This document shows, in pieces, positions 3,151 through 10,989 of a stretch of 21,707 bases of DNA. The notes under the pieces were generated by a model, which saw nothing but the letters and a program-made list of their open reading frames with translations, was not told the origin of the DNA and did not search any database. Every line of letters begins with the position of its first letter. Position 1 is the stretch's first letter. This DNA is from a virus. Lineage: Duplodnaviria > Heunggongvirae > Uroviricota > Caudoviricetes. Both the position numbers and the translations under genes were made by a program. The stretch is from the IMG/VR virus record IMGVR_UViG_2529292922_000023; one strand, given 5' to 3'.

Positions 3151-3324
3151 AAGCAACTCCATCTGGCAGGTGAAAATCATGTTTATTTATATATTTCAAT
3201 TAATTGTAAACTGGTCTAATGACAGGGAGAAAAAAATATTGTACAGGTAAAAAGAGAAATAACTTTTAATTATCAATAAATTACCAAACATGCTGCCGCC
3301 GCCATGGAAATGCAAAAACTAGCC

Positions 3325-3365
3325 TTTTTCCGCGACGCTCCCGCCCCGTGGCAGGCCACCCCACC
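3325..3365 (-). other. Putative cos site (cosN-like cohesive-end region)
   Basis: Minus strand reads GGCGGGTCCTTCCGGTGGGGTGGCCTGCCACG|GGGCGGGAGCGT|CGCGG, resembling the lambda end junction ...CGGGTCCTTTCCGGTGATCCGACAGGTTACG|GGGCGGCGACCT|CGCGG...; GC-rich island in an AT-rich non-coding stretch about 185 bp upstream of the Nu1-like start, as in lambda. Confidence 0.5.
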
Positions 3366-3613
3366 GGAAGGACCCGCCAAAATGAGAGTGATTATCACCA
3401 TTGCTGATGAATAAATTGATGAAAATCATTGAAACGCCTTTCAGCAAGATAACGGCGACGGTCGTTGTTGAACTCCGTAGCTCTGCTACTAAGGTTAAAA
3501 GCATGGCCATCTTTTGCCACCGGCAAATCTTCAATGGATTTCCCCTGCCGGTTTTTTATTCCTCACATTATCGCAGCCCCTCAGTGAAGGGCTGCTGTAA
3601 TGCCTGCTCTTAC

Positions 3614-3997: not shown

Positions 3998-4465
3998 CTA
4001 CTTAATGCGCTGGGTGCGGATATATTCCTGCGCCCCTTCCAGTTGCTTCTGCATCGTCATCAACCGTTCTCTGAGGGTGAAATAATCCCGTTCAGCGGTG
4101 TCTGCCAGTCGGGGGCTGGTTGCATTATCCATGCTGGTGGGTCCGGTGGCTTCACGCACGGCTGCGGAGCAACTGGCATTGACCCGCAGGCGCTTACGAC
4201 CAGCGGCAACATCAGCGCGCAGAGTTTCATTTTCAGTTTTCGCATCGGCTAACTCCTTCGTGTATTTTGCATCGATCGCAGCAACATCACGCTGACGCTG
4301 CTGCATGTCAGCGATGGTGGCGGTCGCCTGCTTCAGCTCACTGACTTTTTTATCACGCTGTTCTTTGTAGGCGATGGCGTTATCACGGTAATGATTAACA
4401 GCCCATGACAGGCAGGCGATAATGCAGATAACCAGAGCGGAGATAATAACGGTTACCCTGCTCAT
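3998..4465 (-). CDS. Rz: Rz i-spanin
   Basis: Translation [39 protein letters not shown]...[13 protein letters not shown] is close to lambda Rz; N-terminal TM helix; start moved to ATG 4465 (ORF track used an upstream GTG). Confidence 0.9.
4060..4245 (-). CDS. Rz1: Rz1 o-spanin lipoprotein, embedded in Rz in the +1 frame
   Basis: [22 protein letters not shown]... has a lipobox with Cys, proline-rich [30 protein letters not shown], close to lambda Rz1. Confidence 0.85.
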
Positions 4466-4959
4466 TGTTGCCCCCACAAACAGACTTCACGCTCAATCTC
4501 GCGGCGAGTCATCAGCCCTTTCCATTGCTTACCGCCAGCGTATGTCCAGCGCCGTAGCTGATCACATGCGCCTTTGATATCGCCCTGGTTTATTTTGCGA
4601 AGAAGCGTCGATGTTCTGAAATTGCCAGCGCCCACGTTGTAAACGAACGAGTAAAGAGCGCCGCGCGTTGTTTCCGGTATATCGACGTTGATGTACGGGT
4701 TAATTTGTCTGGCGACCGTGGCAAGGTCTTTATTCAGGAGGGCTTTGCATTCTGCTTCGGTATACGTTTTACCGAGCATAATGTCTTTTCCGGTGTGCCC
4801 GTAACATACAGTCCATACACCAACGATATCTTTATATGGTATGTAGCTGACGCCTTCCAGACCATCGTTACCACTTGGGCCAGTGATTAACACAGATGCT
4901 ATAGCAATAGCCCCGCCACCAATAGCCGCAGCAACGGCTTTTCGTAATGATGGAGGCAT
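4462..4959 (-). CDS. R: SAR endolysin (phage 21 R-type lysozyme, GH24)
   Basis: N-terminal Gly/Ala-rich signal-anchor-release segment ([18 protein letters not shown]) followed by a T4-lysozyme-like catalytic region ([22 protein letters not shown]); matches my recollection of P21 R. Confidence 0.9.
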
Positions 4960-5174
4960 TATTCACCTCTCGCAGCCTTACGCTTGTCTTCTCTGATTTT
5001 GAAGTACAGATTTGTCAGGTAAGTCAGAAAGCCCAGAACCAGACTTCCCAGCACACCAATCGCAGCCCACTGTGACGGACTGACCTGATCAAGCCACTGT
5101 AAAAACCAGTAGCCAGCACTACCAGCGGATGTTCCGTAGGCAATGCCAGTAGAGATTTTGTCCATTGATTTCAT
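4959..5174 (-). CDS. S: Pinholin (class II holin, S21-like) with dual-start motif
   Basis: 71 aa, MKSMDK... dual start (Met1/Met4), two TM segments, C-terminal basic tail; matches my recollection of phage 21 S. Confidence 0.85.
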
Positions 5175-5296
5175 AGCAACGCCTCCGCCAGTAACGGATT
5201 GCGTAGTTCTTATATTGGGAAGGGGAAAAAAGAAGGCCGCAGCGTAACTATCACTAATAAATTCAGGACAGCCAGTGGCTACGGCTCAGTTTGGGT

Positions 5297-5341
5297 TGTG
5301 GCGGCCGGAATCGAACCGGCTTCCATCGGTGCGCTGCCGAT
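5297..5341 (-). other. tRNA-like 3' fragment (T-arm plus anticodon-arm-like hairpin), not a complete tRNA
   Basis: Minus strand has a canonical T-arm GCCGG-TTCGATT-CCGGC (5304..5320) preceded by a perfect 5-bp stem / 7-nt loop hairpin ATCGG-CAGCGCA-CCGAT (5325..5341); no matching 5' acceptor strand or D-arm found and no CCA. Confidence 0.35.
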
Positions 5342-5489
5342 TGCAGTACGCGCGGCGGTCAGCTATATGACTAGTATTTTCACTATCGCCTATCTGCTAG
5401 CTCGCCATTGAGCTTCACCACAACGATAAGAGCACTGCGCGGCACCTTTCACCAATTCCGCGAGGTCTGCGGGTTCAATGCTCTTACCT

Positions 5490-5526
5490 GTTGTGCAGAA
5501 AAAAAACCACACGGCAGCGAGTTTAA
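5490..5526 (-). terminator. Intrinsic terminator on the late (minus) strand, tR'-equivalent position upstream of S
   Basis: Minus-strand RNA forms CCACAC-AGC...GCU-(GCC)-GUGUGG hairpin followed by U8 (forward A8 at 5490..5497); the flanking CTGCACAACAGGTAAGAGCATTGA matches what I recall of the lambda tR' region. Confidence 0.5.
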
Positions 5527-5576
5527 GCTGTGTGGCGAAGTTACCTCTCTTCACCAAGTATTCGGTAATAAAATAA

Positions 5577-5609
5577 CTTGTGGTGTTCTCGTTTTTATGC
5601 CGATAAAAT
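5577..5609 (+). promoter_or_regulatory. Candidate sigma70 promoter for the moron gene
   Basis: TTGTGG (5577..5582), 18-20 nt spacer, TAAAAT-like -10 inside GATAAAAT, about 25 bp upstream of GGAG RBS and ATG 5639. Confidence 0.3.
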
Positions 5610-5638
5610 AAACGGTCCACTTTCAAATGGAGCGATTC

Positions 5639-6559
5639 ATGATTTTTCTCAGAACTGAAAACGGCATCGAGAAACTTGAAAACTGGGAGGAAATTATATC
5701 CAGACCAAACTTTGTCACCACTATAGACAAAGGAGTTCAACAACTTGAGGAGATAATTGGTTACTACAAATTTAAAGAAGAAATCCACTGTGGTCTAACT
5801 GGTTGCAACCAACCACATCAAATGGGTTATATTGTAAAAACATCTAGTGGCATTGAAACCAACATCGGAAATAAATGTGGTAAAAACGAATTTGGTGTGG
5901 AATTTGGTGAAAACGTTCTTAGTTTCAATAAATTTATGCAACTCGAAACCAATCGGGAAATTATTAGCACCGCAAAAAGTAAATGTGAAGCGTGGCAAAA
6001 AAATATTGAAACGATACGAAATATCAAACCCACAATAGATTATCTATCTTCTACCATCGAAAATAGTAAAAATTCCAATTACTCCGGAAGACTTGGTGCT
6101 ACAGAAATTCGTTTTTTGACCAAGAACCAGACAGGCCTTGTAACCCTTTCTGAAGTGGAAACTGATAAGAATACCAAAACAATTCTGTTCGCAATGAATG
6201 AACACATGCGCGAGTCTGGAGAGGCAATAAGTGAATTCTACATAGGAAAAGTATCATTTAGTCATGTTCTTTTACCAGAAAACAATCTTCGTGATTTTTT
6301 TGTTGCGCTCAAAGAAGATCTAAAAAAAATTCAGTGTATTGATCTACAAACAGCCCCAAGCCCAGAAATTTCTAATGTTGCCAAAATTGCCAGTTCAATC
6401 GAAGAACGAATCAAGCGATTAAAAAAACTGAAACATGAAGCCAGTAAATTCCTAACTAAAAAAAATCTGCGTCCCATCGCAAACAAAATAAAATACTCAT
6501 CGACAGCGGATGAACTTGAATTCCATAATTTCGAACGCTTTTTAAAAGGGCTGAAATGA
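5639..6559 (+). CDS. Moron: AT-rich hypothetical protein (about 306 aa), opposite strand, inserted between Q and the lysis cassette
   Basis: Long clean ORF on the opposite strand to all flanking phage genes; markedly AT-rich; GGAG RBS 6 nt before ATG 5639 (ORF-track start 5627 has no RBS); stem-loop terminator 4 nt after the stop; Lys/Asn/Glu-rich with a Cys/His cluster (HCGLTGCNQPH...KCGK) and predicted coiled-coil C-terminus; no family recognised. Confidence 0.7.
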   Translation: MIFLRTENGIEKLENWEEIISRPNFVTTIDKGVQQLEEIIGYYKFKEEIHCGLTGCNQPHQMGYIVKTSSGIETNIGNKCGKNEFGVEFGENVLSFNKFMQLETNREIISTAKSKCEAWQKNIETIRNIKPTIDYLSSTIENSKNSNYSGRLGATEIRFLTKNQTGLVTLSEVETDKNTKTILFAMNEHMRESGEAISEFYIGKVSFSHVLLPENNLRDFFVALKEDLKKIQCIDLQTAPSPEISNVAKIASSIEERIKRLKKLKHEASKFLTKKNLRPIANKIKYSSTADELEFHNFERFLKGLK

Positions 6560-6562
6560 TAA

Positions 6563-6580
6563 AAGCCCCGAAAGGGGCTT
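6563..6580. terminator. Bidirectional stem-loop terminator (7-bp stem, GAAA tetraloop) between Q/pR' and the moron
   Basis: AAGCCCC-GAAA-GGGGCTT; on the minus strand followed by UUUUAUCAUUU, on the plus strand placed 4 nt after the moron stop with a weaker U-tract. Confidence 0.6.
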
Positions 6581-6673
6581 CTATCAAAATCATTTACGCA
6601 TTATTCCGCATGCTTAAAAGAATACATGACAGATTCGGACAAAATCAAGTGCAATGTCGCAAAAACCCTAAGC

Positions 6674-7504
6674 TTAGTTCACATCATCACCAAAACTTGT
6701 CACATTCTGAAAAGCAATATCGGCCTTACGCTCTTCCTGGTGGCAAATGTCAACCAGAGAATCAAGAAACGGCTTCCAATTACGCGTCCATGTCCTGACA
6801 TGTAGCTCGGGTATCCGCTTCAGTACAACTTTATATACTGTGGTAGACGGTACCGTGGAAAATCCATTTCCGCTGCAACGTTCGCAGATTTTAAACACTG
6901 GCACACCACGCTCGCTTGTGGCTTTGCGGTCCAGTACCTCTCCCTTTCCACCACAACGACACCTGGCACTTATCACTCCCTTCCCTTTACATACATCGCA
7001 AACGACTGGTACAACTTCCGTTACCTCTGTCCATTTCTCCCAGTCTGACGGTCGAACAGCACGGGAGCGACTGGCCCAATATGGTGCTTTACCCCATGGG
7101 TATGAAACCTTACGAATGACCTGCTTACGGGGTGTTAGTCCGGTACCACTGCAACTATGGCATGTTACGCTGGTGTCCGCCGATCGGGAATACTCAGCAA
7201 AAGCAAACTGCGCCAGTACCAGCATACACCAGCCAAATTCACCACCAGCTGCTTTACGCACATTCTTCGGTGCAATTTCCATCGCGTGACGCGCCAGCGC
7301 TTGGACTGCCATCTGCTCATCAGTCTTGCTGATACCGGCCTTCCCGAAGAAGGCCGCCAAGCCAAACCGTTCACGATTGCTGGTGGTACCAATAGCCGCC
7401 ATAACATCGGTGCCTGTAAGACGTTCCGGAGAGGTTCCTTTCACATCGTCGCCGATATACATTCCCTGAGGACTGAAGTATTTTAGCGATGCCTCAAGCT
7501 TCAT
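6674..7504 (-). CDS. Q: Late antiterminator Q (lambda Q family) with expanded zinc-binding region
   Basis: N-terminus (KYFSPQG...LTGTDVMAAIG) and C-terminus (KVVLKRIPELHVRTWTRNWKPFLDSLVDICHQEERKADIAFQNVT) align with lambda Q (LIPNLTQPTWSRTVKPLYDALVVQCHKEESIADNILNAVT); central region carries four CxxCxGxG-like repeats. Confidence 0.85.
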   Translation of the reverse strand: MKLEASLKYFSPQGMYIGDDVKGTSPERLTGTDVMAAIGTTSNRERFGLAAFFGKAGISKTDEQMAVQALARHAMEIAPKNVRKAAGGEFGWCMLVLAQFAFAEYSRSADTSVTCHSCSGTGLTPRKQVIRKVSYPWGKAPYWASRSRAVRPSDWEKWTEVTEVVPVVCDVCKGKGVISARCRCGGKGEVLDRKATSERGVPVFKICERCSGNGFSTVPSTTVYKVVLKRIPELHVRTWTRNWKPFLDSLVDICHQEERKADIAFQNVTSFGDDVN

Positions 7505-8361
7505 TATTCACACTCCCCAACCAGATTAAGAATAACCGCCGCGCCATTGTCTTTCATATATTCGCCCTTTCCGCTTGCCAAAAACCAACGACACACCTCC
7601 ACTGCTTCAGCCCGTGTCACCGGTTTGATGGTCATCAGCAATTTTTCAAGGTAGCGCTCGCGGTCATATACCGATTCGTGATGCTCAGAGTAACCATACT
7701 CATCGCCCTGTTCTTTAGACGCAGTGTGGCGAACACTGTAGAGCCAGTCCCAGTAAACAAACTCACGAACTACGTCTGACAATGTATGAGGCTCTGGCAG
7801 TACATCACGATAGCCATCAACATATGCACGACGCTGATCATCAATTTCATTCATACGGATGCCATCAATTCTGCCCGCTGTCTTCTCGGCTGCAGTCCAG
7901 CCCCAGAGATGATCGTCGATAAATTTCTGGGAAGACTTGATCACTCGCTCGGCTTCCACATCTTCGAGTGCTGCTTCATAGCTACCAAACGTAGCCCTGA
8001 CTGATGTTGCTTTTTTGATATTCTCCCGGGCGATCCTGATTGCCTGTGCCGGGTTATCCATGCCGATGGTACCGAAAGCAATCTGGAAAGGATCACCACC
8101 ATTCGCCAGCAGATAACGCGAATAGCGTTCCTGGGCCTCTTTTGGGGAAATTTTAATTTTCACCAGCGCAGCCTCAGCAGCATCCAGATGTGCGGGTTCG
8201 TTCAGACGGATAACCTCCAGCACCCAAAGATAAGCATCAGTCTGCTTATGCCCGGTGATTCTCCGTTGCTCTGGCAGGGGCTTGATGTTTGCGAGGGCGG
8301 AGCTGTACGCTGCCGTCGGGATGGTGAATAGTGCTTTATGTTCGTTGTTATCAGTACGCAT
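7504..8361 (-). CDS. Hypothetical protein (285 aa), nin-region position between primase and Q
   Basis: Long ORF translationally coupled to primase upstream and Q downstream; no family recognised. Confidence 0.55.
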   Translation of the reverse strand: MRTDNNEHKALFTIPTAAYSSALANIKPLPEQRRITGHKQTDAYLWVLEVIRLNEPAHLDAAEAALVKIKISPKEAQERYSRYLLANGGDPFQIAFGTIGMDNPAQAIRIARENIKKATSVRATFGSYEAALEDVEAERVIKSSQKFIDDHLWGWTAAEKTAGRIDGIRMNEIDDQRRAYVDGYRDVLPEPHTLSDVVREFVYWDWLYSVRHTASKEQGDEYGYSEHHESVYDRERYLEKLLMTIKPVTRAEAVEVCRWFLASGKGEYMKDNGAAVILNLVGECE

Positions 8362-9329
8362 TACGCAACCGCCTTTTTCTTATGGAAAACCAGCTCTCGA
8401 ACCTGATCACCGTTCATGAGCATATTGTTGAAATCATCGTGATCCGGCCAGTACACGCTCACGCGCTGCAGGTCATTCTTTGCCATCAGATTGGCATGAG
8501 CACATTCGCAAGCCGCAGCCAGCCCGGTGGCGCTGTTCTCGTCACGGTCGGCAAAAATAATCAGGTGCAGAACACCAGCTGGTACGCGGAACTTTTTCAT
8601 AAAGCCGCTGTTAATGGTTGCCCAGGTGTTCACGTTATAAATCTGGTGCGCTGACAGCGCTGTTTCGATGCCTTCGGCGATACCCAGAGTGCTAGCAACA
8701 GGAAACATGCGGATAGCTACAGAACGAGCGTGATCCAAATAGTTATCTTCCTGCAGGGATTTGAGGCGCTTTGCACTGCTACCGATATCTGCTTTTTTAT
8801 CACCATCAAGCAGAGTCTGGTGCAGATAGCACAACTCCCCTTTATCGTCCGTAGCAAGTGAATAAAGAGACTGGAACACACTCCCGTTGTGTCTCTGCCT
8901 GGCATTGAACCGGATCGCCTCAGCAGGAAGACTGAATATTCCACGAGAATTAAGATACGCTGCGCCGGATGTACCACGCAGTGCCTCCAGTTTTGAAAAC
9001 TTGCTCAATACCCGTTTGCGTAAGCTGGTGGCGCTGCTGGTTACCGGGATTTTAACCCGTTGGTAATCATTACCGCTCAGGCGGTCTATTTCGGTACAAA
9101 TCTCGTTAAATGGCTTCGCCTGTGTCAGGGTGACAAGTTTCATACCATCGCCACTACCACATACACAGATCCACGTTCCTGCACCGTCGCGGTCATCAAT
9201 TCGGAACTTGCCACGTGCACCGCATACCGGGCATTCACCCTTGAAGTGATTTTTTCCTGTTATCGGCGGCAAGCCGAAGTGCTCTAATATTTCAGGCCAG
9301 CGGCCTTTCGCTGCAGCTGCTGTTTTCAT
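8361..9329 (-). CDS. DNA primase (N-terminal zinc-binding CxxC...CxC motif plus Toprim-like region)
   Basis: GECPVCGARGKFRIDDRDGAGTWICVCGSGDG zinc-finger signature typical of phage/plasmid primases; acidic DRDE-like motifs; coupled to the helicase gene. Confidence 0.7.
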   Translation of the reverse strand: MKTAAAAKGRWPEILEHFGLPPITGKNHFKGECPVCGARGKFRIDDRDGAGTWICVCGSGDGMKLVTLTQAKPFNEICTEIDRLSGNDYQRVKIPVTSSATSLRKRVLSKFSKLEALRGTSGAAYLNSRGIFSLPAEAIRFNARQRHNGSVFQSLYSLATDDKGELCYLHQTLLDGDKKADIGSSAKRLKSLQEDNYLDHARSVAIRMFPVASTLGIAEGIETALSAHQIYNVNTWATINSGFMKKFRVPAGVLHLIIFADRDENSATGLAAACECAHANLMAKNDLQRVSVYWPDHDDFNNMLMNGDQVRELVFHKKKAVA

Positions 9330-9330
9330 C

Positions 9331-10989
9331 TTACTGACTCAAACTGTTTATATTTTTCTGGAGTTGTTGCTTTGCTTGCATGATGCGCCAAGCCTCAGTG
9401 CCTATTGGCATCTCGCTTCGCTCACCTCGTTCCTGAGACAGAGGAATCGTTGCCTGCAATTTTTCTATAGTTCTCTGCGTCCGCTGACGGCCTTTGGCAA
9501 ACCGAATCAGCTTGTGTTTGATGTAGTTACTTACTTCTGGGCTTATTTCCATCGGGAAACTGCTCAACCCATCAGGCCATTCACCGAATTTCTCCCTGAA
9601 AGTGTGAGCACACCATCCATCACTGACTGGACGCCCCAGCGAAGCACGCTGGCGCTGATAAAATTTGATCTGACTCCACCAGGACTGTTTCTCTGCCTTC
9701 GTCGACTGATGCTGATTTTTACCCAGCTTATTAAGTTTGCGGCTAGTGTCAGTATCAACGTCTTCACCTCGCAGCGGCTTGTGTCCACATTTCGGGCAAA
9801 CATAGACGCCAGCTGGCTTCATGTAGTGGCATTGAGGGCATTCATGTGGCAGTTTTTCGGCCCGTTCCTCAACTGCGCGGCGCGCGCTTTCCTCCATGCC
9901 ATCAGACTTACCGGGAAGATCGTCGTACTCGATTGAATCCGGATAACCCAAACGGTGCACGGTGCCGCTGTGATCGAAGATAAGGCAGGACGCTTTACCC
10001 GGTGCGGTGCGCAGCCCACGCCCGAGTGCCTGCAACCAGCGAATTTCGCTTTTTGTTGGCCTGGCGTAGATGATGCAACGAACGTCACTATCGAATCCGG
10101 CTACCAGAACGCCCACACTAACGATGATTTTCGTTGCACCGGTTTCAAAGCGGTGAATGATGGTCTGGCGCTCATCTACCGGAGTGTCGGCGGTCATTAC
10201 CTCAGCGTTAACACCCGCCAAGTTAAACTGGATTGTCAGATAATTGGCGTGAGCTACGTTGACGCAGAAAGCGATGGTAGGTAGATCCCGACCATTCTCC
10301 AGCCAGTTCTGTACGATGTCGCCCACCAGCGTAGAGCCGCACATGATTTCAGCCAGCTGTGTTTCGTTGTAATCGCGGCCGTACTCAAGCGAAGATGTGG
10401 TTTTAACACCTTTCAGATCCGGCTTAGTTGGCGCGTAAAATTCGTATTTACTCAGATCGCCACGCTGGATTAACTCGCCGATGGTGGTCGGCTTAATCAG
10501 TCGGTCATAGTATTTGCCCAGGAACGGAGAAAACGGAGTACCCGACAGGCCAATCACCTTTACGCCTTTGCCGCGCAGACGTTCGATATCCTTCAGGATG
10601 CGTTTTTTACGCAGGTGCGCTTCGTCGATAATCAGCAGATCGATATTTTCAGGAAAAACACGACGAATAAGCGTGTCAGCGCTGGCAATCTGAATTTTCC
10701 GGTCCGGATCGTAGTTCGGGTGATCCGCCCAGATATAACCGATTTCATCTCCAGGTAAACCATACTGCACGAACCGATTAGCCGTCTGACCAATCAGGAT
10801 GGTGTACGGAACACAGAACAGAACACGCATACCACGGCTGACAAAACCAGCAACTATGAAGGCTGCCAGACCCGTTTTACCGCTACCTGTTGGCGAGTAA
10901 ACCATGAAGGTGTCGTTTGCCTTCCAGTCACGGCGCAACATGTTTAGCGCTCGCTCCTGTGCAAAATTCGGCGTGATTGTCAGCTGCAT
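9331..10989 (-). CDS. Superfamily 2 DEAD/DEAH-box helicase (replication module)
   Basis: Walker A SPTGSGKTG, DEAH box (LIIDEAH), motif III-like SGTP, arginine finger region QALGRGLR; C-terminal Cys4 cluster (CPQC...CPKCG). Confidence 0.85.
   Translation of the reverse strand: MQLTITPNFAQERALNMLRRDWKANDTFMVYSPTGSGKTGLAAFIVAGFVSRGMRVLFCVPYTILIGQTANRFVQYGLPGDEIGYIWADHPNYDPDRKIQIASADTLIRRVFPENIDLLIIDEAHLRKKRILKDIERLRGKGVKVIGLSGTPFSPFLGKYYDRLIKPTTIGELIQRGDLSKYEFYAPTKPDLKGVKTTSSLEYGRDYNETQLAEIMCGSTLVGDIVQNWLENGRDLPTIAFCVNVAHANYLTIQFNLAGVNAEVMTADTPVDERQTIIHRFETGATKIIVSVGVLVAGFDSDVRCIIYARPTKSEIRWLQALGRGLRTAPGKASCLIFDHSGTVHRLGYPDSIEYDDLPGKSDGMEESARRAVEERAEKLPHECPQCHYMKPAGVYVCPKCGHKPLRGEDVDTDTSRKLNKLGKNQHQSTKAEKQSWWSQIKFYQRQRASLGRPVSDGWCAHTFREKFGEWPDGLSSFPMEISPEVSNYIKHKLIRFAKGRQRTQRTIEKLQATIPLSQERGERSEMPIGTEAWRIMQAKQQLQKNINSLSQ

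Follow-up and report, generated by a model that had tools for sequence, protein, structure and literature searches.

A predicted composite late-control region in a tailed-phage genome, with a convergent cargo gene between two late-direction terminators

The DNA analysed here (hereafter the window) is a stretch of 21,707 nucleotides (nt) from IMG/VR virus record IMGVR_UViG_2529292922_000023 (Caudoviricetes), in which a reverse-oriented cargo gene lies between the gene for the late antiterminator Q and the first late gene, with a terminator-like hairpin on either side. Late transcription runs along the minus strand, and positions 7504..4959 were read as a composite late-control region comprising the following features, given in the order in which late transcription would meet them.

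6674..7504, minus strand: Q antiterminator gene, 276 residues, Q-lambda family (Pfam PF03589)
6619..6648, minus strand: predicted late promoter pR', in a conserved block directly after Q
6554..6585, minus strand: predicted intrinsic terminator tR', with its stem at 6558..6585, loop at 6570..6573 and U-tract at 6554..6564
5639..6559, plus strand: cargo gene ('moron'), 306 residues, with the Shine-Dalgarno sequence GGAG at 5629..5632 and an alternative in-frame ATG at 5627
5604..5609, plus strand: candidate -10 hexamer TAAAAT of a cargo promoter, kept in relatives, with a weak -35 (TGGTGT)
5499..5560, minus strand: putative fossil pR'-leader-tR' block of the Q21 family (H-19B/DLP12 type), assigned by alignment homology; the second late-direction terminator ('t2')
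5231..5498, minus strand: HK75/lambda-type late leader, beginning CTGCACAACAGG directly after the T-run
4959..5174, minus strand: phage-21-type class II holin, the first late gene (Pfam PF04971)

The open reading frame (ORF) at 6674..7504 was assigned to Q by its match to Pfam PF03589 (E 2.6e-52), which is equated with the Q-lambda family (PMC9388147), and by its similarity to Q-lambda chains in the PDB (7ubm, E 2e-35; 4mo1, E 2e-25). Relatives were defined as Q homologues at 76–100% amino-acid identity together with their downstream DNA, and all of them carry, after the Q stop codon, a conserved block of the form TTGATT - TTGTCCGAAnyTGTCnTG - TATGCT - TCTAATC - purine. The corresponding elements in the window are a -35 hexamer TTGATT (6643..6648) and a -10 hexamer TATTCT (6619..6624), separated by the 18-nt spacer TTGTCCGAATCTGTCATG (6625..6642), with a predicted start near 6611. 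The TTG of the -35 is present in all 49 distinct relative sequences and the TAnnnT positions of the -10 in 46–47 of them, while the spacer (TTGTCCGAA..TGTC) is almost invariant. An alternative register of the promoter (TTGTCC-18-TCTAAT) was rejected, as position 2 of its hexamer is A in only 5 of the 49 sequences. Beyond the predicted start, a T(A/T) at about +9/+10 is conserved, and the window has AATAAT at about +7..+12; the conserved dinucleotide is the best candidate for a pause element.

A comparison with O157-type prophages bears on the role of the spacer. Many of these prophages share the first 644 nt of Q with the window at 98% identity, and in one of them the Q protein is identical to that of the window up to about residue 212; beyond this point, the last ~60 residues differ. 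The same prophages have the pR' spacer TTGCATAAA instead of TTGTCCGAA, a different tR' stem and a cargo homologue that is only 25% identical. Because all of these parts switch together, the C-terminal part of Q, along with pR', tR' and the cargo, moves as one module; and because the spacer switches with the last 60 residues of Q, it is a likely candidate for the Q-binding element. The mosaic breakpoint lies inside Q, at window positions ~6860..6870 (codon ~212), and the switched stretch runs through position 5639. No second copy of the Q-binding-element-like motif was found elsewhere in the window.

The hairpin next to this promoter folds on the minus strand as GAUAGAAGCCCC-UUUC-GGGGCUUUUAUC (6585..6558), with an energy of -21.2 kcal/mol (z = -7.7, none of 200 shuffles as good), a fully paired stem and the tail UUUUAUCAUUU. 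On the plus strand, the corresponding values are -18.3 kcal/mol, with an A.C mismatch in the stem, a GAAA loop and the poorer tail UUCUAUCA. The hairpin overlaps the stop codon of the cargo gene (6557..6559) and would also cap the cargo mRNA. Its position in relatives was tested by per-sequence folding with a shuffle control: a hairpin followed by a T-tract ending 30–75 nt after the -10 was found in 46 of 52 distinct relatives, compared with 7 of 520 dinucleotide shuffles (1.3%). The stems are diverse, with at least 12 different sequences (GCCCC, GCCCCC, ACCCGC, ACCCTGCC, GCCCTGCC and others), and since they do not line up as homologous stems, RNAalifold gave no base pairs for a MAFFT alignment of 29 tR' variants. 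Among the 67 distinct contexts after Q, a member of the cargo family follows in 35, another reverse ORF in nine and no reverse ORF in 23, and in all three situations the terminator is present, with its spacing from the conserved promoter unchanged. Because this position after the conserved promoter is kept whatever gene adjoins, the hairpin at 6558..6585 was identified as the probable cognate tR' of the Q-lambda-family Q. The unmodified constitutive pR' RNA is thus predicted to be ~54 nt long and to end at the cargo stop codon, so that the cargo gene would lie beyond tR' rather than between it and pR'.

In the original prediction, which had been made from the letters of the sequence, the moron was placed inside the pR'-to-tR' interval, the distal terminator being the true tR' and the proximal hairpin an additional insulator. 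In this arrangement, the insulator would have arrived together with the moron. The distal terminator does descend from the tR' of another Q family, and its position relative to the shared leader is exactly that of tR' in lambda and HK75; moreover, the loops on the cargo strand of the proximal hairpin are kept as GNRA in three cargo-associated variants. We nevertheless consider it unlikely, since the proximal terminator occurs at the same promoter distance without a reverse ORF or with unrelated ones, the hairpin is stronger on the late strand in both energy and U-tract, and the window contains no cognate Q for the distal block. Other parts of the prediction fared better. The promoter-like block directly after Q is conserved in the Q relatives, and the GNRA hairpin given as 6563..6580 is exact as to its core, the full stem extending over 6558..6585, but only the plus strand has a GNRA loop (GAAA), UUUC taking its place in the late transcript. 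Termination in both directions, as had been proposed, is convincing for the minus strand, with its tail, and is weakened on the plus strand by the mismatch and the poorer tail.

The loops of the GCCCC-stem variants next to cargo homologues (window 6570..6573 and loci of the L040 and L041 types) are UUUC, UCUC and UUGC on the late strand, which correspond to GAAA, GAGA and GCAA on the cargo strand, all of them GNRA. This hints that the tR' hairpin may also be constrained as the 3' end of the cargo mRNA.

The second hairpin, CCACACAGCUUAAACUCGCUGCCGUGUGG followed by U8, has its stem-loop at 5507..5535 and its T8 at 5499..5506. A widespread block, AAGAGTGGTTACTTCGCCACACAGCTTAAACCCGCC..GCGGGT(n), is homologous to this element plus ~30 nt upstream of it and was counted in at least 120 contigs of IMG/VR and 222 phage records, always with a hairpin and a T-run; a literature text search for the literal block sequence returned nothing relevant. 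The window copy is composed of a decayed -10 equivalent, TACTTG (5555..5560), a leader (5536..5552), the hairpin and the T8, and its homology to the blocks of DLP12, H-19B, a Stx2a-type phage and further relatives was established by alignment. The H-19B copy starts 14 nt past the stop codon of Q and is preceded by TTTACG-16-TATCAT, and in the Stx2a-type phage the distance from the Q stop codon is 74 nt. In both, the leader, the CCCGCC..GCGGG hairpin and the T-run align with those of the window, and the Q proteins belong to PF06530, the Q21 family. The window copy differs in that the upstream promoter part is absent, the final T of the -10 has been lost, the stem has been replaced and no Q21-family (PF06530) Q accompanies it, tblastn of the window with QuuD and HK75 Q having given no match. 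No credible -35 precedes TACTTG, and a consensus scan gave no minus-strand promoter-like site in 5536..5640. As to the stem, three C-to-T changes abolish the small GC stem and create a CCACAC/GTGTGG pairing, with -10.5 kcal/mol compared with -8.5 kcal/mol for the canonical form of DLP12 and H-19B. Close relatives have hairpins with varied stems at the same position (CCCGCC/GGCGGG, CCCG../..CGGG, GCCT/AGGC), and the hairpin is kept whatever lies downstream, be it stx2f (in phage phi467), tRNAs or the lambda-type leader. Because no cognate Q is found in the window and the -10 equivalent lacks its final T, the distal terminator was read as the fossil of a Q21-family pR'-tR', a tR' only by descent, which probably acts only as a back-up terminator. 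A tandem of two different late cassettes was observed in a related locus (L004, E. coli 2012EL-2448, ~3277..3570), where a pR'-tR' of the Q-lambda type and, after it, ~75 bp left over from the cargo 3' end precede an apparently intact H-19B-type block (TTTACG-16-TATCAT, leader and terminator) located before tRNA genes.

In DLP12 (qsr', E. coli K-12) and phage 434B, the gene order is quuD - nmpC (reverse) - essD. As in the window, a reverse cargo, here the porin gene nmpC, lies between Q and a phage-21-type holin, and the same distal block (AAGAGTGGTTACTTCG.CACACAGCTTAAAC, hairpin and T-run) stands before the holin; a reverse cargo between Q and holin, and with it this architecture, is already known. 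The differences are that Q is of the Q21 family (PF06530) and that the block keeps a plausible promoter (TTTACG-16-TATGCT) downstream of the cargo, and therefore late transcription would not cross the cargo there. That a pR'-like block follows the reverse cargo in DLP12-type prophages agrees with another explanation for the window, according to which the proximal hairpin, which abuts the cargo stop codon, chiefly terminates cargo transcription or early-operon read-through past Q, and the working late promoter lies elsewhere, for example at the fossil near 5555. This we hold to be very unlikely, given the state of the fossil -10 equivalent, the missing -35 and the negative scan of this stretch, as well as the conservation of the TTGATT...TATGCT block after Q. 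Furthermore, a Q-lambda-family protein is not expected at a Q21-type site, lambda Q being inactive on H-19B (PMC6266700).

Downstream of the fossil, window positions 5506..5231 are 97% identical to HK75 DNA starting at the T-run of the annotated HK75 tR', and lambda matches the window leader at 30 of 32 positions directly after the T-run of its own tR' and at 65 of 68 further on. The distal stem is unrelated to those of lambda and HK75 tR', only the T-run and the downstream leader being shared. The distal T-run is accordingly taken, on this comparison, as the recombination joint with the HK75/lambda-type leader and the phage-21-type lysis cassette. The homology to the lambda tR'-S leader that the original prediction had named was thereby confirmed by alignment, beginning at the distal T-run. 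That prediction was also right in placing the distal terminator more than 1.1 kb from the Q stop codon (6674 - 5535 = 1139) and an opposite-strand gene (5627/5639..6559) between two late-direction terminators; the terminator itself, real by homology, had been assigned to 5490..5526, about 9 nt away from its actual location at 5499..5535. Within the leader, a tRNA- or transfer-messenger RNA (tmRNA)-like fragment (GGTTCGATTCCGGCCGCCAC...) was observed at 5293..5351 (minus strand). It matches the Rfam tmRNA model with E 8.7e-6, but at only 20 bits, below the gathering score of 47, and ARAGORN reports no gene there; the homologous stretch is annotated as tRNA-Ser in one Salmonella phage record.

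The cargo ORF starts on the plus strand at 5627 or 5639, and its 306-residue form is called by PGAP in close relatives. The G+C content is 34–38%, compared with ~50% in the flanks. The product matches phrog_7003, annotated as of unknown function, and gave no match in Pfam, NCBIfam, PADLOC or with a PDB sequence profile. An AlphaFold2 model (predicted local distance difference test score of 92) comprises an N-terminal β region, which harbours the invariant residues H50, C51, C56, H60 and C80, followed by long helices, and a fold search with this model returned no informative match. The family is large and unannotated, with 997 clusters at 50% identity. Ten distant homologues were devoid of Pfam domains and yielded a single weak match in PADLOC (JetC, E 0.0018). 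The distant homologues occur in varied mobile-element contexts with no constant partner gene; one of them, from a soil metagenome (L220), resides in an island with an integrase, where it follows a PF13910 protein and neighbours a CD-NTase/patatin pair of the cyclic-oligonucleotide-based antiphage signalling system (CBASS) type.

Homologues at 40% identity in Serratia (L218) and Providencia (L219) prophages are likewise reverse-oriented and lie between the holin and a Q-like gene of the PF06530/DUF1133 type. Both loci have a promoter-like site after the Q-like gene and a strong terminator abutting the reverse cargo stop codon, and that of Serratia has a second terminator before the holin as well. 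The succession of Q, promoter-like site and terminator at the reverse cargo stop codon has thus recurred independently with a different Q type, and placement of the cargo between Q and holin, convergent to pR', extends over at least two Q families and several enterobacterial genera.

Upstream of the cargo gene, GCGATAAAAT around TAAAAT (5604..5609) is kept in relatives at 77–85% identity; the scanner did not call a promoter there, and we only infer that TAAAAT is the best candidate for the -10 of the cargo's own promoter. Copies of the gene were found to be interrupted in several relatives: in phage phi467 (L002) it is split by +/-1 indels in homopolymer runs, which correspond to A8 at 6458..6465 and A7 at ~5997..6003 of the window, and it is truncated in several IMG/VR relatives (L018, L019 and L023). 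Such split or truncated copies could reflect slippage-prone tracts, decay or sequencing error.

Morons, such as bor and lom in lambda, are a concept that arose from the comparative genomics of HK97 and HK022. The cargo resembles those of lambdoid phages in its patchy presence (found in some close relatives and absent from others), its atypical, low-G+C composition, its putative own transcription signals and its insertion between conserved modules. It differs from them in that its 3' end is the tR' hairpin of the phage itself, which it shares, and in that its homologues hold the same reverse slot between Q and holin across different Q families. A tentative and rather doubtful proposal is that the phrog_7003 cargo provides a single-gene function expressed in the lysogen, possibly against other phages, and that its reverse placement is functional: in the lysogen, the gene would be protected by the two late-direction terminators, and at induction it would be shut off by antisense transcription under Q antitermination.

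On the observed anatomy of the locus, its homologies and its conservation, we based a composite model, to which we assign a probability of roughly 0.75, in which a Q-lambda-type cassette with its own tR' is followed by the convergent cargo and then by a Q21-type fossil terminator. The Q gene would be followed by its own cassette, made up of pR' (-35 at 6648..6643, -10 at 6624..6619), a short leader and tR' (6585..6554). Without Q, transcripts from pR' would end as the ~54-nt RNA at the stop codon of the convergent cargo. Transcription of the AT-rich cargo would proceed on the opposite strand, probably starting at a weak promoter belonging to the gene, and end in the same tR' hairpin. The second late-direction terminator (5535..5499) would represent the Q21-type remnant whose T-run joins the HK75/lambda-type leader and lysis cassette. 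After induction, Q would load at pR', and the modified polymerase would pass tR', ~1 kb of cargo in the antisense direction and the fossil terminator into the lysis genes. A protective role of the terminators, as in the original prediction, is plausible, although the cargo would lie after tR': pR' transcripts made by unmodified polymerase would halt ahead of the cargo, and polymerase modified by Q would continue through both terminators.

Several points weigh against this model. The -10 (TATTCT) and the -35 (TTGATT) of the window each match the consensus at only four of six positions, and the scanner called neither; moreover, there is no clear -10-like pause element at +1..+6, which sets the window apart from lambda. 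The start site, pause element and Q-binding element of pR' are only inferred, and so are promoter activity, termination efficiency, read-through by Q and expression of the cargo in the lysogen. Three related loci (L063, L075 and L082) are without a clean tR'. Considered alone, the distal hairpin is not beyond chance (-12.9 kcal/mol in a 54-nt context, z = -1.2, 28 of 200 shuffles folding as well) and has an unusual shape, with a 6-bp stem and a 17-nt interior, so its efficiency in termination is uncertain; it was counted as real because it is homologous to the widespread element and not on account of its folding energy. The consensus promoter/terminator scan of the window called neither hairpin nor pR', which we put down to the scanner; in the case of the hairpins, the most likely cause is that stems were extended maximally before the T count and loops were capped at 8 nt. 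This failure and the low distal z value could be taken to mean that both hairpins are chance inverted repeats devoid of termination function, to which we give next to no credence: the proximal hairpin has z = -7.7 and a positional equivalent in 46 of 52 relatives, against 1.3% of shuffles, and the distal element is always accompanied by a hairpin and a T-run in the contigs and phage records in which it occurs.

The composite model shares with lambda the Q family (PF03589), the promoter located directly after Q and followed by an intrinsic terminator, and the partial homology of the late leader after the terminator T-run (30/32 and 65/68). The differences are that the window Q has 276 residues, compared with 207 in lambda Q, at ~31% identity, that pR' and tR' display no sequence similarity, that a reverse cargo and a second terminator precede the leader, and that the terminated RNA is predicted at ~54 nt, shorter than lambda 6S RNA. 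The latter is 194 nt long. In the Stx2f phage phi467 (LN997803) and related E. coli prophages, window positions 6800..5500, encompassing the 3' end of Q, pR', tR', the cargo and the distal block, are 99% identical. There, the distal terminator is followed by stx2f A/B, tRNAs and S instead of the lambda-type leader, the cargo is frameshifted and the distal terminator stem has the GC-rich CGCC/GGCG form.

Outside the control region, the holin gene is followed by those of the lysozyme and Rz, and a replication module is found immediately upstream of Q (7504..10989, minus strand).

4462..4959, after the holin: lysozyme (Pfam PF00959)
3998..4477, after the lysozyme: Rz (Pfam PF03245)

The replication module includes a 285-residue phrog_6204 protein (function unknown) before Q, with an overlap of 1 nt between its stop region and the Q start; it also includes a primase with Toprim and zinc-ribbon domains (8361..9329) and a helicase of the DEAD/ResIII type (9331..10989). 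Rfam at gathering thresholds and ARAGORN reported, respectively, no match and no tRNA gene in the window.

These findings leave the understanding of Q antitermination unchanged, and it is textbook knowledge that Q allows read-through of a terminator cassette ahead of stx (PMC6266700, PMC3202840). They correct the predicted end of the constitutive late transcript for the Q type of the window, and for an unstudied branch of 276-residue Q-lambda proteins they supply a predicted promoter and terminator and a candidate Q-binding site, all concrete enough to be tested. Terminator T-runs emerge as module joints in lambdoid mosaics, and a large, unannotated cargo family that is conserved in position is brought to attention. 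Finally, the analysis bears on Shiga toxin 2f phages, in which a 99% identical Q-pR'-tR'-cargo module lies directly upstream of stx2f, so that expression of the toxin genes would need read-through of two terminators and of 1 kb of antisense cargo.

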